DNA of 46,671 nt from a phage: NCBI GenBank assembly GCA_030877765.1, contig GCA_030877765.1_4853.1. One strand, given 5' to 3'. Shown piece by piece: positions 20,900-38,557 of the stretch (within the stretch, counting starts at the first letter, position 1; each line of letters opens with the position of its first letter). Under the pieces are notes generated by a model. It searched no databases. It was given only the letters and a program-made list of their open reading frames with translations, and had not been told where the DNA came from. The position numbers and the translations under genes were made by a program.

Positions 20900-20931
20900 C
20901 TTCATCACCTCATTCATCACTTGATATAGAT

Positions 20932-20977
20932 ACTATGCACCACCAACCAATCTACGTCAACACCATTGTGATAGAAT
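20932..20977. promoter_or_regulatory. Divergent promoter pair
   Basis: Minus strand TTGACG, 17 bp, CATAGT; plus strand extended -10 TGaTAGAAT. The core CACCACCAACCAATCTACGTCAACA recurs at 34160-34190. Confidence 0.55.
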
Positions 20978-21003
20978 TAATCATTATTTGAACTGGAGGC
21001 AGA

Positions 21004-21282
21004 ATGAAACTATCGCAACGAGGCGTGGAGACGTTTGGAATTACCGATGCCGTGAATATATCGCCTTACATCACTACCGAGACAACGCAGAATCAGTTCG
21101 ACGCGCTGGCAAGTCTTGCCACCGACATTGGCATTTACGCGTTCCGTAAATCAACGCTTCTGAAGAAGCACAACCTCCGCTGCTTCTCATGTGCTGTTGC
21201 GCATTTCATCGCGTGGGGCGAGAAGACTGGCGACAAAGCAAAACGCAAAGCTGAAAAAGAGGTTTACTGGTATGGCTATTAG
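21004..21282 (+). CDS. Lysozyme-like remnant (GH24/P22 gp19-type C-terminal subdomain only)
   Basis: QNQFDALASLATDIGIYAFRKSTLLKKHNL...AHFIAWGEK parallels the P22/T4 lysozyme C-terminal region as recalled from memory; catalytic Glu/Asp/Thr segment absent; has its own RBS (GGAGG). Confidence 0.5.
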   Translation: MKLSQRGVETFGITDAVNISPYITTETTQNQFDALASLATDIGIYAFRKSTLLKKHNLRCFSCAVAHFIAWGEKTGDKAKRKAEKEVYWYGY

Positions 21283-21736
21283 TAAAAACATGAAGGCGTT
21301 TCTGGATATGCTGGCGTACAGCGAGGGCACTGATAACGGGCGGCAGAAAACCAATAATCATGGTTATGATGTGATTGTTGGCGGCTCACTGTTTACCGAC
21401 TATTCCGACCACCCGCGCAAGCTGATTAGCCTGCCAAGGCTGGGCATTAAATCCACCGCCGCCGGTCGCTATCAGGTACTGGCTAAGTTTTATGATGCGT
21501 ACAAAAAGCAATTGCGTTTACCGGACTTCTCCCCCGCATCGCAGGACGCCATTGCAATGCAGCTAATCCGTGAATGCAAGGCCACCGCTGATATTGAGGC
21601 TGGTCGCATTGCTGATGCCATCCATAAATGCCGCTCCCGCTGGGCCTCATTGCCGGGCGCTGGGTATGGTCAGCATGAGCAGAAGCTGGATAAGCTGATT
21701 CAGGTATACAAAGAGGCTGGCGGAGCTGTGGCATGA
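21272..21736 (+). CDS. Endolysin, lambda R-type lytic transglycosylase
   Basis: KAFLDMLAYSEGTDNGRQKTNNHGYDVIVGG..FTDYSDHPR...GRYQ...WASLPGAGYGQ closely tracks lambda R as recalled. Confidence 0.9.
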   Translation: MAISKNMKAFLDMLAYSEGTDNGRQKTNNHGYDVIVGGSLFTDYSDHPRKLISLPRLGIKSTAAGRYQVLAKFYDAYKKQLRLPDFSPASQDAIAMQLIRECKATADIEAGRIADAIHKCRSRWASLPGAGYGQHEQKLDKLIQVYKEAGGAVA

Positions 21737-21972
21737 AAAAGCTAAGCAACTGGCTGCTCGCCGCGTGGATTTCATTCTGCTCGCTGTTACAACTATGGCC
21801 TGATGCAATGATGCATGTGTGGGTAATGATGCCGGATGACCTGAAAGCAGCGCTACCGCCAATCGTGGTCAAAGGTGTGAGTTACTCAATTATGCTTGTC
21901 GGCATCCTCGGCAAAATGCACGGCATGAGGAAGGAAAACCGGAGGCTGCGCAATGATGTCGATTCTCGTTAA
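21733..21972 (+). CDS. Putative holin (two TM helices, charged C-terminus)
   Basis: TM1 LSNWLLAAWISFCSLLQLW, TM2 VSYSIMLVGILG, tail KMHGMRKENRRLRND; ATGA-coupled to the endolysin. Confidence 0.45.
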   Translation: MKKLSNWLLAAWISFCSLLQLWPDAMMHVWVMMPDDLKAALPPIVVKGVSYSIMLVGILGKMHGMRKENRRLRNDVDSR

Positions 21973-22444
21973 ATACTGGCGACCGCTGGCAATTATTATA
22001 ATTGTTGCCGCTGGCGCGTTGTGGGTGGCAAATAAAGTGTCCGGTTATGGCGAGCAACAATATGCCGCCGGATACGCGAAGGCAGTCGCAGAACAGAAGG
22101 CCGCAGACGAACAAGAGGAGCAACGACGCAATGCAGAACTGCAAAAGATTCAGGCCGACGCACAGCAAAGGATTGATGCTGCGCGCAATGATGCTGTTAA
22201 TGCTGCCGCTAAGTCTGGCAGGTTGCAGCAACAACTCACCAGTATCCGCAAGCAGCTCGTCGGATATTCCACCGCTGAGTCCATTGGCAACCCAGCCGCA
22301 GAAACCGGAGTTTTGCTTGCAGACGTGCTCCGCAAATCTGTCGAAAGAAATCAACAGCTGGCAGATTACGCTGACAGGGCGAGAGAGGCAGGATTGACGT
22401 GTGAGGCACAGTATAATTCTCTGCGTAATAAAAAAGCCCCGTGA
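21953..22444 (+). CDS. Rz: Rz-like i-spanin
   Basis: N-terminal TM (LAIIIIVAAGALWV) followed by Gln/Ala-rich coiled coil. Confidence 0.8.
   Translation: MMSILVKYWRPLAIIIIVAAGALWVANKVSGYGEQQYAAGYAKAVAEQKAADEQEEQRRNAELQKIQADAQQRIDAARNDAVNAAAKSGRLQQQLTSIRKQLVGYSTAESIGNPAAETGVLLADVLRKSVERNQQLADYADRAREAGLTCEAQYNSLRNKKAP
22176..22397 (+). CDS. Rz1: Rz1-like o-spanin lipoprotein, embedded in +1 frame within Rz
   Basis: MLRAMMLLMLPLSLAGCSNN: signal peptide with LAGC lipobox; Pro-rich mature region. Confidence 0.7.
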   Translation: MLRAMMLLMLPLSLAGCSNNSPVSASSSSDIPPLSPLATQPQKPEFCLQTCSANLSKEINSWQITLTGRERQD

Positions 22445-22460
22445 TGGGGCTTTGTTTTAA
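22433..22460. terminator. Bidirectional terminator
   Basis: Stem agcccc/ggggct overlapping the Rz stop, followed by TTTGTTTT. Confidence 0.75.
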
Positions 22461-23121: not shown

Positions 23122-23423
23122 TATTTAATCTCTCCGTTCAGTTCATTAACAATTAACGTTGCATAGCCAGCAATATCTTTCCAGCTGTCATCATAAGTCG
23201 GGTCGCCATTCAGAATGCGCCCAATCTTGTGCTGAATCATGTCGAGCGCCTCGCGTTGACTTGGTGTGAGATTGCGCCAGCCATCTACCTTGCGCATCAC
23301 ATCTTTCAACTCCTGCATAATTTCAGCGCCGTCTTTGAATTTACCGTATCGACTACCGCGTTCGGTGATGAGTCGCTCTGTTGCGTCAGTATGGCGCTTA
23401 TCGCCCGTGATTTGTGAACTCAT
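23121..23423 (-). CDS. Hypothetical protein (100 aa)
   Basis: Operon-coupled ORF. Confidence 0.45.
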   Translation of the reverse strand: MSSQITGDKRHTDATERLITERGSRYGKFKDGAEIMQELKDVMRKVDGWRNLTPSQREALDMIQHKIGRILNGDPTYDDSWKDIAGYATLIVNELNGEIK

Positions 23424-23910
23424 TGTGATGCATTCTCCTGAATTCTTTTATTTTTGCTTCTGCTTCTCTTATGTCGGAAAAGTAACCAACTGTGAATCTT
23501 TTGCCATTTACTCCAACTCTTGCATGCCACTTGTTGTGCGATGAACTCCAGTTAACCCCCTTGATACCGCTAGTGTTGTTTTTGTTCATTGCTTTGTTGT
23601 GGCTATTCTCAAATTTGCTGGCCTCCCTTAAATTGCACGCCCTGTTGTCATTGCGAATGCCATTAATGTGGTCAATCATTTCACTTGCTGGCGCGCCATG
23701 AATGCATATCCATGCCAATCTGTGAGCAAGAAAAGCCCTACCGCAAAGAATTATTTGCACATATCCATCTGGCTTTAAGTAGCCAGCCACACTCCCTTTT
23801 TCTGCAATCCTATTCCTTGTCTTTAGCCATTTAAATTCCCCAGTTAGTGGATTGTAGTAAAGGTAACTCAATATAAACTCCCTACTCGGCTCATCTCTCC
23901 TATGCCTCAT
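23398..23910 (-). CDS. HNH-AP2 homing endonuclease (paralog 3 of 4)
   Basis: AHRLAWICIHGAPASEMIDHINGIRNDNRACNLR followed by NTSGIKGVNWSSSHNKWHARVGVNGKRFTVGYF. Confidence 0.85.
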   Translation of the reverse strand: MRHRRDEPSREFILSYLYYNPLTGEFKWLKTRNRIAEKGSVAGYLKPDGYVQIILCGRAFLAHRLAWICIHGAPASEMIDHINGIRNDNRACNLREASKFENSHNKAMNKNNTSGIKGVNWSSSHNKWHARVGVNGKRFTVGYFSDIREAEAKIKEFRRMHHNEFTNHGR

Positions 23911-34235: not shown

Positions 34236-34355
34236 ATGGGTTCAACCAACTCACCATCTCGTTCGCGCGCTACTGGCAACACAAAAACTGGCGGCAAAAC
34301 TGGCGTGGTGAAGCCAAACGGCTCTACCCGTTCACCATCGCGCGGTAAAAAATAA
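34236..34355 (+). CDS. Small basic Ser/Gly/Arg/Lys-rich protein (39 aa)
   Basis: AGGAG RBS, ATG 34236; stop overlaps the next ATG. Confidence 0.35.
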   Translation: MGSTNSPSRSRATGNTKTGGKTGVVKPNGSTRSPSRGKK

Positions 34356-34783
34356 TGTTCGGCGCAGATGTTGCCATCATGATCATGTATGTGCTTGGAT
34401 TTGCCTGCACGGGCATGGTTGCGTTTCTGGTGTTCATTCCGGCAATGGTGATGTCTGTGTATCTTGGATGGGTGCTTGTTGATTCATTTCCCGCCGAATA
34501 TCTGTATTACCTTGCGCAGTGTATGGTCGGGTTGTTTCCGGCTATTGCGCTGCGTAAAAGTACAAAGATGGCGCTCTGCGTGCTGACGATGAGCCTTTAC
34601 GAATGGCTGGTTGCGATAGAGTCATTCGTATGGGAATTTATCACGCCTGTAGAAACGCCGCTTCATGCGCAGTACGCATTTATTATTATCGGCATCCATC
34701 TGTTCATCCTTTTCATCACTTTTAAATGGGGCGGCGAAATTGGACGTTATTCTTGGCGTGGTTGCCATCGTTTTTTTCGCTGA
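34355..34783 (+). CDS. Polytopic membrane protein (about 4 TM)
   Basis: Four hydrophobic helices. Confidence 0.5.
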   Translation: MFGADVAIMIMYVLGFACTGMVAFLVFIPAMVMSVYLGWVLVDSFPAEYLYYLAQCMVGLFPAIALRKSTKMALCVLTMSLYEWLVAIESFVWEFITPVETPLHAQYAFIIIGIHLFILFITFKWGGEIGRYSWRGCHRFFR

Positions 34784-34828: not shown

Positions 34829-35113
34829 ATGAACGAAACACTAAGACAGGCCACAGAGCAAGTTATAAGCGGGCCGATGGGGCAGGTGATTGACAAGGCT
34901 GGATATGCCTCCATTGGTACTGGTATTGGACTGAAAGTTGCAGAGCAAACGCCTGTCACGCAGTCTTATTTTGAGGCTATGATTCCACACAGTCTGACAG
35001 AGTGGGCGGCAGTAGCGTCAATCCTCGGCGCCCTGTCTCTGGTAATAAAGAACCTCTTTGAAATGTGGTGGAAGGTACGGGAGTCAAAAAAAAATGGCAG
35101 CACCAACACCTGA
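34829..35113 (+). CDS. Hypothetical protein with C-terminal TM helix
   Basis: WAAVASILGALSLVIKNLF hydrophobic segment. Confidence 0.4.
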   Translation: MNETLRQATEQVISGPMGQVIDKAGYASIGTGIGLKVAEQTPVTQSYFEAMIPHSLTEWAAVASILGALSLVIKNLFEMWWKVRESKKNGSTNT

Positions 35114-38226: not shown

Positions 38227-38366
38227 ATCACCTTGTCCTCATCAAAAATCACGCCAATAACGCGAAGTAAGTCTTTCGCCATGCGTTCCGCTTCCTCGTA
38301 GTCGTAACCTGCATCAACATACAAATCAGTGTAGAAAATCAGGTCAGCTTTTGTTTGTTCGTTCAT
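38223..38366 (-). CDS. Small acidic protein (47 aa)
   Basis: ATGA overlaps at both ends with the Imm-like and DUF551-like genes. Confidence 0.3.
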   Translation of the reverse strand: MNEQTKADLIFYTDLYVDAGYDYEEAERMAKDLLRVIGVIFDEDKVI

Positions 38367-38557
38367 TTCTTGTCGCCACTGTTAACTAATGCCCAAACAA
38401 GTGCCGCAACCCATCCAATAAAGCTCCACCCGACAAGAATATTCAGTACACAGATTGCTGTCGTGTTTGTGTGCTTGCGTTGCAAAGCCACAAATGATGG
38501 AAGAAGATAAACAAATATAACCAATCCAGCAAAAAGCAACAAAATAACAACATCCAT
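38363..38557 (-). CDS. Superinfection immunity (Imm-like) small membrane protein
   Basis: Two TM helices; LPSFVALQRKHTN...LNILVGWSFIGWVAALVWAL matches the Imm superinfection-immunity family pattern. Confidence 0.6.
   Translation of the reverse strand: MDVVILLLFAGLVIFVYLLPSFVALQRKHTNTTAICVLNILVGWSFIGWVAALVWALVNSGDKK

Follow-up and report, generated by a model that had tools for sequence, protein, structure and literature searches.

Here we describe the lysis region of a phage DNA of 46,671 nucleotides (GenBank assembly GCA_030877765.1, contig GCA_030877765.1_4853.1), the whole of which is referred to below as the window. A + strand operon encodes five proteins in tightly overlapping genes, namely a 92-aa fragment of a GH24 lysozyme, a lambda-R-type transglycosylase, a 79-aa membrane protein of family DUF7940, an i-spanin and an embedded o-spanin (Table 1). 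The gene identities that a sequence-only reading of the window had proposed (a lysozyme relic, an endolysin, a holin-like protein with two transmembrane domains (TMDs), Rz, and an embedded Rz1 with a lipobox) agree with family searches and with public annotation.

Table 1. Features of the lysis cassette and of one membrane protein gene outside it.
Feature	Position	Strand	Basis
Shine-Dalgarno GGAGG, 4 nt ahead of first cassette gene	20995..20999	+	Read directly
Internally deleted GH24 lysozyme, 92 aa	21004..21282	+	Pfam, PHROG, alignment, AF2/Foldseek
Lambda-R-type lytic transglycosylase, 154 aa	21272..21736	+	phmmer, phrog_90, hydropathy
DUF7940 membrane protein, putative class II holin, 79 aa	21733..21972	+	Pfam, PHROG, hydropathy, AF2, synteny
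i-spanin (Rz-like, DUF2514), 163 aa	21953..22444	+	Pfam DUF2514 E 4.4e-30; phrog_312 E 5.7e-51; hydropathy
o-spanin (Rz1-like), 88-aa precursor, embedded in +1 frame of Rz	22131..22397	+	phrog_11621 E 4.6e-34; lipobox
Bidirectional intrinsic terminator hairpin AAAGCCCC-GTGAT-GGGGCTTT	22433..22453	.	Terminator scan; flanks A6 and GT4
Conserved 94-aa membrane protein, alternative holin candidate, outside cassette	34829..35113	+	phrog_13738, S21-like hydropathy layout

The cassette DNA is 99.3% identical to that of Salmonella phage vB_SenS_ST1UNAM, its nearest relative, and about 91% identical to that of Skate and Vi II-E1. The cassettes of Skate (MH321493; CPT_Skate_015-019), Vi II-E1 (VIP0006-0010) and E. 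coli phage swi2 share all five genes, their order, their overlaps and the terminator with the window, and differ from it by point substitutions only. The GenBank labels in these relatives are endolysin/glycosidase, endolysin/transglycosylase, class II holin, i-spanin and o-spanin. The cassette was already stated in the Skate genome announcement (PMC6606912), and the same arrangement has been described for swi2 (PMC8185280). It is known and annotated, and is ordinary for Skate/Vi II-E1-like phages.

All genes to the left of position 20920 lie on the - strand. A promoter scan found no + strand sigma-70 consensus promoter upstream of 21004; an extended -10-like element, TGATAGAAT, at about 20968-20976 was spotted by eye only. 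At the other end of the operon, the loop of the terminator hairpin contains the Rz stop codon (22442-22444), and a terminator is annotated at the equivalent place in the Skate record. The cassette genes would be carried on one shared transcript, with a Shine-Dalgarno sequence at each start and overlaps of 4-20 nt that would couple their translation.

The endolysin, whose start was corrected to 21272, is homologous to lambda lysozyme over residues 3-153 (phmmer E 7e-62 to PDB 1AM7/3D3D), matches phrog_90 with an E-value of 2.4e-57, and keeps the catalytic Glu motif SEGT (AYSEGT aligned to lambda AWSEGT), which together place it among the lambda R-type enzymes. No NCBIfam model matches this protein or the 79-aa protein. 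The ribosome-binding site of its gene is at 21259-21262. A signal peptide, SAR segment or TMD was sought in the endolysin, and no hydrophobic segment appeared on either hydropathy scale, as in a cytoplasmic, holin-dependent enzyme. Its dN/dS is about 0.04. A soluble endolysin of this kind implies a canonical (large-hole) holin.

The only + strand gene upstream of the endolysin is that of the 92-aa fragment, so the earlier statements that no holin precedes the endolysin and that a lysozyme relic is found there instead both held. The fragment matches Pfam Phage_lysozyme at profile positions 55-114 of 125 (E 1.6e-10) and phrog_10457 (E 3.5e-39), and aligns over its whole length with a full-length GH24 endolysin that occupies the same position in Klebsiella-clade relatives. 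Compared with the latter, it has a true internal deletion of about 55 residues, including the catalytic FEG...PDP...TIGYG; the helix at the N-terminus is retained, as is the helical C-lobe, and the Glu-Asp-Thr triad of the N-terminal lobe is gone. The AlphaFold model has the compact C-lobe fold of GH24 proteins (pLDDT 92.9) and is matched by Foldseek to the GH24 endolysins 8APP, 9KBS, 3HDE and 2ANV (probability 1.0, TMq about 0.7). There are also weak NCBIfam and Foldseek matches to the SpmX muramidase domain. SpmX-type proteins resemble the fragment in that a GH24-derived domain has been kept for a presumably non-enzymatic role, whereas SpmX retains the entire muramidase fold and the 92-aa protein lacks the N-lobe and the catalytic residues.

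The 92-aa gene is the remainder of the GH24 endolysin that the lineage had originally. Between the GH24 gene and the membrane-protein gene, a gene of the lambda-R type was gained, and an in-frame deletion took out the catalytic lobe of the GH24 enzyme; what is left is still translated and is conserved, probably in a non-catalytic role. The ORF is intact in every relative, and in clusters of >1,900 sequences the length is 92 aa without exception. Pairwise dN/dS values of 0.03-0.24 (median 0.16; dS 0.25-0.47; 9 phages of several genera) indicate that it is under purifying selection. Alternatively, the gene could be a functionless, decaying pseudogene, conserved only through the recency of the deletion or through a need to translate it for coupled translation of the endolysin. 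In favour of this, the catalytic region is deleted, the 11-nt overlap with the endolysin start fits translational coupling, Klebsiella-clade relatives and phage P400 lyse without the fragment, and two rare variants of the gene (P0149 and P0153) look frame-shifted locally. However, coupling alone keeps a frame open and leaves its residues unconstrained, which does not fit the low dN/dS, and the constant length and the confidently predicted compact fold likewise argue against decay. We consider a pseudogene unlikely, though worth keeping in view.

The 79-aa protein is 96% identical to its counterpart in Skate and 97.5% identical to the swi2 orthologue. Its gene follows the endolysin gene and overlaps the Rz start, as the earlier reading had noted: the start codon at 21733 forms an ATGA with the endolysin stop (21734-21736), and the overlap with the Rz start at 21953 is 20 nt. 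The two helices and charged C-terminus ascribed to it were also recovered. TMD1 spans about residues 7-31 and TMD2 about residues 44-62, with the conserved loop P-D-D-L-K-x-x-L-P-P between them, followed by a basic C-terminal tail in which the last 19 residues include 7 K/R and 3 D/E. The hydrophobic segments themselves lie at about 7-21 and 44-58 by hydropathy, and their biological-scale sums (+1.1 and +2.9) are as good as the values obtained likewise for the three TMDs of lambda S105. AlphaFold predicts long helices at 2-32 and 43-78 (pLDDT 71). The charges of the N-terminus (+2), loop (-2) and tail (+4) predict, by the positive-inside rule, that both termini face the cytoplasm.

The 79-aa protein matches Pfam PF25612 (DUF7940) with 39.5 bits against a gathering cut-off of 27, and phrog_13249 ('holin', E 3.7e-51), although the PHROG 'holin' labels that it matches are annotation-derived. 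It matched no described holin family in Pfam or NCBIfam; DUF7940 and the PHROGs were the only hits. A word-indexed homologue search recovered close relatives only, and an exhaustive profile search returned 34 representatives at E <= 1e-3, so that either the family has few members or the shallow profile lacks sensitivity. Like the class II holins (S21 68 pinholin, HP1; Phage_holin_2_x), the protein is small, has two helices, a predicted N-in/C-in topology and a basic tail, and is encoded together with an endolysin in a cassette. It differs from them in its TMD1, which is not Gly/Ala-rich (not SAR-like). A pinholin mechanism would not suffice here because the endolysin of the window is not of the SAR type. 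There is no sequence similarity to lambda S, and the proteins of the holin papers on phage S10 (Jerseyvirus) and an S. pullorum myophage are unrelated to it.

The last two genes encode an embedded two-component spanin of the lambda Rz/Rz1 type (Summer 2007; Kongari 2018). In the i-spanin an N-terminal TMD (12-26) is followed by a periplasmic domain rich in Ala, Gln and Glu, and Cys150 is the only cysteine. The o-spanin gene lies wholly within that of the i-spanin in the +1 frame and ends at 22397. Its product carries a LAGC lipobox (Cys32 of the precursor) that does not vary among 11 phages, those of the Klebsiella clade among them, and conforms to the consensus [LVI][ASTVI][GAS]C (Kongari 2018, PMC6139136). 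Residue +2 is Ser and not Asp, so the protein should sort to the outer membrane. Of the 57 residues of the mature o-spanin, 6 are Pro, 11 are Ser and 3 are Cys; the two cysteines beyond the lipid Cys and C150 of Rz are available for predicted intermolecular disulfides. The nesting, frame, end and lipobox given in the earlier reading are correct, but its start at 22176 (73 aa) gives way to ATG 22131, the more likely one on sequence grounds. The latter is favoured by its AAGAGG Shine-Dalgarno sequence, which all relatives retain, those of the Klebsiella clade too, and by its annotation as the start in Skate (O-spanin) and Vi II-E1 (VIP0010). Start 22176 has a weak AAAGGA four nt upstream that is absent from the Klebsiella clade. 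Relative to the length of Rz, the o-spanin extends from 0.36 (22131) or 0.45 (22176) to 0.90; in the embedded architecture it typically runs from 0.4-0.5 to 0.9-1 of the i-spanin gene.

The cassette order had been called unusual, a description that comparison does not sustain. The succession of endolysin, small two-TMD protein and spanin is fixed across the lineage, Yersinia phage P400 included, and endolysin, DUF7940 and an i-/o-spanin pair follow each other in 13/13 distant IMG/VR loci. The endolysins of representative distant loci were typed as muramidase PF11860 and GH108, with a third type that is GH24-like by eye and has no Pfam match. DUF7940 is the sole TMD protein of the cassette, as in the window, in 5 or 6 of the 13 loci; locus L084 carries a short overlapping 54-aa TM ORF in addition. 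The literature search on holin-after-endolysin order yielded nothing useful, and an ISME J survey of lytic proteins contains no gene-order analysis. PRD1 was rejected as a precedent, since its holin gene XXXV comes after the gene for the virion transglycosylase P7/P14 and before the spanins, and endolysin gene XV is not adjacent.

Among well-known systems, lambda S-R-Rz/Rz1 shares with the window a soluble R-type transglycosylase and a +1-frame, lipobox-bearing o-spanin nested in an i-spanin with an N-terminal TMD. In lambda, however, the membrane protein precedes the endolysin, has three TMDs and uses the S107/S105 dual start, whereas that of the window follows the endolysin and has two TMDs and no dual start; the DUF2514 family of the i-spanin is a further difference. 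In the P2 cluster Y-K-lysA-lysB-lysC, too, a membrane-protein gene separates the endolysin from the spanin pair, and distant DUF7940 cassettes with an upstream holin reproduce its order exactly. The window differs from P2 in lacking an upstream holin, and the P2 spanins are overlapped and not embedded.

We interpret the region 21004-22453, with a probability of roughly 65%, as a late lysis operon, belonging to a virulent siphophage of Salmonella and E. coli that is Skate/Vi II-E1-like and in which the DUF7940 protein is most likely the holin. The soluble transglycosylase would build up in the cytoplasm while the DUF7940 protein resides in the inner membrane with its two TMDs and both ends cytoplasmic. 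Holes formed at a set time would then give the endolysin access to the murein, after which the Rz-like i-spanin and the lipoprotein o-spanin would disrupt the outer membrane. Non-orthologous replacement is typical of holins. The slot of DUF7940 in the syntenic Yersinia phage P400 is filled by a non-homologous 75-aa protein with two TMDs, and such a replacement points to a holin. No paper in the literature searched mentions DUF7940, and no informative functional test of any member was found. The orthologue from swi2, which shares 96.2% identity with the holin of Skate, caused neither lethality nor lysis when expressed at 16 C as a 52-kDa trigger-factor fusion (PMC8185280), but such a fusion would not insert as a holin.

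The DUF7940 protein might instead be an accessory membrane protein for timing or regulation (an antiholin, a LysA-like protein, or a partner of spanin or endolysin), the holin being encoded outside the cassette. The best candidate for the latter would be the 94-aa protein, possibly together with the 4-TMD protein encoded directly upstream (34355-34783). In several other phages DUF7940 comes after the endolysin and a canonical holin before it, the latter either of the LydA type (PF16083; KPP5665-2 GP47 and loci L093-L095) or of the HP1 type (PF16080; L089, L090 and L092), and DUF7940 cannot be the sole holin there. The gene order is that of P2, where lysA is non-essential and affects timing only. 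The inter-helix loop, periplasmic in the predicted topology, is unusually conserved across distant phages, with the motif P-D-x5-W-x-M-M-P-D-D-L-K-x-x-L-P shared by members from Xanthomonas, Pseudomonas and Klebsiella phages, a hint that the protein has a specific partner and does not simply form holes.

The claim that the 79-aa gene is the only holin-like ORF is accordingly true of the cassette and too broad for the window, where small, conserved membrane proteins are also encoded at 34829-35113 (class-II-holin-like), 34355-34783 and 38363-38557(-). Like pinholin S21 68, the 94-aa protein combines a weak segment rich in G/A/S with a strong TMD and a basic tail. It gives pairwise BLASTP matches to class II holins (E 1e-4) and hhalign probabilities of 42-59% to those of the S21 and HP1 types. 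Its gene is present in all relatives including P400, and one source calls an orthologue 'Holin'. Yet its likeness to holins is limited to a single TMD and reaches no family threshold (Phage_holin_2_1, Pfam E 0.078), and the gene heads the tail operon and adjoins no lysis gene. P400 keeps it while exchanging DUF7940 for another two-TMD protein. Many DUF7940 cassettes contain no other membrane protein (the Skate-like lineage, L085-L088 and L091), PaCCP1 and Suba have DUF7940 in the usual pre-endolysin position of a holin, and DUF7940 is not homologous to P2 LysA (hhalign probability 0.1%). An accessory role of this kind appears improbable.

A bolder version, which we regard as quite improbable, would make DUF7940 a distinct class of lysis-cassette membrane protein that acts not as a hole-former but as a timer or regulator, either as a functional analogue of P2 LysA or by coupling murein degradation to spanin activation. 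Such a class would be marked by its conserved periplasmic loop and by its place between endolysin and spanin genes, which in the enterobacterial cassettes examined does not depend on the type of endolysin. The true holin would be the unlinked S21/HP1-like product of 34829-35113, and, linked to this, the dead GH24 remnant would be a selected, non-enzymatic lysis factor. For the window we infer a holin role of DUF7940 as the preferred reading.

That the 92-aa protein is a second active muralytic enzyme, as proposed for swi2 ('lysin2') on the basis of a titre drop of about 1 log with both TF-fused 'lysins' (PMC8185280), is highly improbable, since the part missing from it, as the limited Pfam match also indicates, is the GH24 catalytic triad segment (E-x8-D-x5-T region) and the swi2 assay gave small effects with fusion proteins and had no catalytic mutant control. 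The 'Ex5Dx8T motif' remarked on in the Skate record was rejected as a catalytic motif, since it has the reverse of the GH24 spacing and sits in a non-homologous junction.

The cassette as such matters little, being a holin/endolysin/spanin system of the textbook kind from a group of phages that is well sampled. Its details bear on the reliability of propagated 'holin' and 'endolysin' labels: the 'holin' label of DUF7940 derives from position only, though canonical holins co-occur with it in other phages, and papers on therapeutic phages and lysin engineering take the 92-aa fragment for an active lysin. Endolysin replacement is cleanly illustrated by the locus, in which a lambda-R-type gene displaced a GH24 enzyme whose dead remnant is still under purifying selection.

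The five genes are an ordinary lysis cassette that had been annotated before, and the sequence-only reading of them as such is correct. At the DNA level, the region shares 99.3% identity with Salmonella phage vB_SenS_ST1UNAM and about 91% with Skate, Vi II-E1 and numerous other phages of Salmonella, E. coli and Shigella, with matches in 160 records. At the homologous positions of Skate, the Center for Phage Technology annotated an endolysin/glycosidase, an endolysin/transglycosylase, a class II holin, an I-spanin and an embedded O-spanin, and the same cassette is given in the genome announcement (PMC6606912). For Vi II-E1 (2008), a "weak similarity to another phage holin" was recorded and the embedded ORF was annotated.

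Lysis cassette genes and a second pair of membrane-protein genes
Feature	Position	Strand	Remarks
92-aa gene	21004-21282	+	first of the unit
154-aa gene	21272-21736	+	11-nt overlap with 92-aa gene
79-aa gene	21733-21972	+	ATGA overlap with 154-aa gene
163-aa gene	21953-22444	+	20-nt overlap with 79-aa gene, which the sequence-only reading had also noted
Embedded ORF	ends 22397	+	+1 frame, inside 163-aa gene
142-aa protein	34355-34783	+	four hydrophobic segments/TMDs; phrog_14688; precedes 94-aa gene
94-aa conserved membrane protein	34829-35113	+	S21-pinholin-like hydropathy layout

The unit begins at 21004, because the nearest upstream genes (left of 20920) lie on the minus strand. All starts are preceded by Shine-Dalgarno sequences (in gene order GGAGG, GAGG, GGAG, GGAGG and GAGGAG), and the operon is closed by a hairpin (22433-22453) that is rich in G+C, lies between runs of A and T, holds the Rz stop codon TGA (22442-22444) in its loop and forms a bidirectional terminator shared with convergent minus-strand genes. 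An HNH/AP2-type homing-endonuclease-like gene (23398-23910, minus strand) follows the cassette at a distance of about 1 kb. A 64-aa protein with two TMDs (38363-38557, minus strand) matches the superinfection-immunity family of Pfam (Imm_superinfect, E 1e-18) and phrog_1039.

The 154-aa protein is a lambda-R-type lytic transglycosylase, matching the structures of lambda lysozyme (1AM7, 3D3D) over its full length (E 7e-62) and retaining the SEGT catalytic motif. Matches to DUF2514 (E 4e-30) and phrog_312, together with an N-terminal TMD at residues 12-26, identify the 163-aa protein as an Rz-like i-spanin; the embedded ORF is its o-spanin (phrog_11621, E 5e-34). The lipobox LAGC proposed earlier is invariant across 11 phages, among them members of the Klebsiella clade (divergence roughly 60%), and is followed by Ser at +2 and a mature part of 57 aa rich in Pro and Ser. 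The embedding in Rz likewise stands; the start at 22176 is possible, but ATG 22131 is better supported: its Shine-Dalgarno sequence AAGAGG is kept in all relatives, whereas the weak AAAGGA upstream of 22176 is missing in the Klebsiella clade, and the resulting 88-aa form is also annotated in Skate and Vi II-E1. Depending on the start, the ORF extends from 0.36 or 0.45 to 0.90 of the Rz length, a span typical of embedded spanins (PMC6139136).

The spanin region varies among relatives. Seszw_1 (L013 1721-2200) shares the N-terminal half of Rz and the signal and lipobox of Rz1 with the window, while its C-terminal half of Rz and mature Rz1 have no sequence relation to those of the window; this mosaic suggests recombination inside the embedded pair. 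Several relatives carry an extra soluble ORF of 53-56 aa between the DUF7940 gene and Rz that is absent from the window, as in Sa179lw (gp74, L009 1721-1882) and ZCEC08 (L011 1352-1522) and, judged from alignment gaps, in S192, C1 and 64795_sal3.

The gene order had been called unusual. It does differ from that of lambda, yet it is fixed in this lineage, and in 13 of 13 distant loci, the most distant in IMG/VR found by a DUF7940 profile search, the DUF7940 gene lies directly between the endolysin and the i-spanin/o-spanin pair (phrog_1026/phrog_1275). Endolysins typed in representatives of these loci were an N-acetylmuramidase (PF11860), GH108 with PG_binding_3, and a third type that appeared GH24-like by eye and gave no Pfam match. 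The Klebsiella clade has the order GH24 endolysin, DUF7940, Rz/Rz1. Since lineage and distant loci agree, the slot after the endolysin is the usual one for DUF7940 in enterobacterial-type cassettes; among the cases examined, DUF7940 precedes the endolysin only in Pseudomonas phage PaCCP1 and Xanthomonas phage Suba. The slot before the endolysin varies within the lineage. It can be empty or hold a GH24 remnant; in Yersinia phage P400 it is taken by gp27 (L097 10613-10882), an unrelated soluble protein of 89 aa, and in Klebsiella phage vB_KpS_GP-1 a homing endonuclease (242 aa, L007 325-1053) resembling that at 23398-23910 is inserted immediately before the endolysin.

The 79-aa protein (Pfam DUF7940, 39.5 bits, cut-off 27; phrog_13249) is a putative holin (probability about 0.65), and this assignment is the weakest link in the reading of the cassette. 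As had been expected, it contains two TMD-grade segments, comparable in score to the TMDs of lambda S105 under the same calculation, which used literature scale values and S105 reference sequences. The N-terminus carries a charge of +2, the C-terminal tail is strongly basic, and in the AlphaFold model (pLDDT 71) a PDDLKAALPP loop connects two long helices. With these segments and the Rz1 lipobox, neither of the two outcomes that would have overturned the sequence-only reading was seen, as judged by hydropathy and motif. In favour of a holin role, it is, besides the spanins, the sole membrane protein of the cassette, as it also is in five to six distant DUF7940 cassettes; hydropathy revealed no hydrophobic segment in the endolysin, which is soluble and therefore needs a hole. 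In the syntenic P400, a muramidase-like endolysin is followed by a non-homologous 75-aa two-TMD protein and then a spanin, a non-orthologous replacement in this slot.

It is rather unlikely that DUF7940 is an accessory protein and the holin is encoded elsewhere. Such a role would fit KPP5665-2 and the loci L093-L095, with a LydA-type holin (PF16083) before the endolysin and a three-TMD DUF7940 protein after it, and L089, L090 and L092, where an HP1-type class II holin (PF16080) takes the upstream position. These cassettes match the P2 order Y-K-lysA-lysB-lysC, in which lysA affects timing only, but DUF7940 has no homology to P2 LysA. The inter-helix loop, conserved from Salmonella to Xanthomonas phages (P-D-x5-W-x-M-M-P-D-D-L-K-x-x-L-P), is unusual for a simple hole-former. 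In the only experiment on a DUF7940 protein, the swi2 orthologue (96.2% identical to the Skate holin) tested negative (PMC8185280), a result that says little because a trigger-factor fusion was used at 16 C. The claim that the putative DUF7940 holin is the only holin-like ORF holds for the cassette but not for the window, which also encodes the 94-aa protein. This protein copies the layout of pinholin S21 68 (weak G/A/S-rich segment, strong TMD, basic tail) and bears at best a faint similarity to class II holins (Pfam E 0.078, hhalign 42-59%); its SB28 orthologue is named "Holin" in one source. With the 142-aa protein it forms a conserved pair that opens the tail operon (gp50/gp51 in P400).

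The 92-aa protein had been described as a lysozyme relic. Its origin is indeed a GH24 remnant: it aligns from MKLSQRG to the end with full-length GH24 endolysins at the same position in the Klebsiella clade (51-53% identity) and lacks about 55 internal residues, including the catalytic Glu, Asp and Thr. In the simplest history, the original GH24 endolysin would have gained a lambda-R-type gene as its downstream neighbour and then lost its catalytic lobe by in-frame deletion. The gene is, however, not decaying. Nine phages of several genera, and protein clusters totalling >1,900 sequences, keep a length of exactly 92 aa, and pairwise dN/dS is 0.03-0.24 (median 0.16), compared with 0.04 for the endolysin and 0.13 for DUF7940 (pairs not independent). 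AlphaFold confidently predicts a helical GH24 C-lobe with an N-terminal helix (pLDDT 92.9), for which Foldseek returned GH24 endolysins as best matches (TMq ~0.7). A non-catalytic function is plausible because translational coupling alone would leave the residues unconstrained. A second active lysin, as claimed from the swi2 "lysin2" result and the Skate note "Ex5Dx8T", is not credible on sequence grounds, the region with the catalytic Glu/Asp/Thr being missing. Two rare protein variants (P0149, P0153) look frame-shifted over residues ~55-85 but end in VYWYGY again; the cause is either sequencing error or a compensated frameshift, which would preserve the overlap with the endolysin start.

The residual interest of this cassette lies in the function of DUF7940, whose role as a holin is putative, and in the remnant of a dead lysozyme that is under selection.
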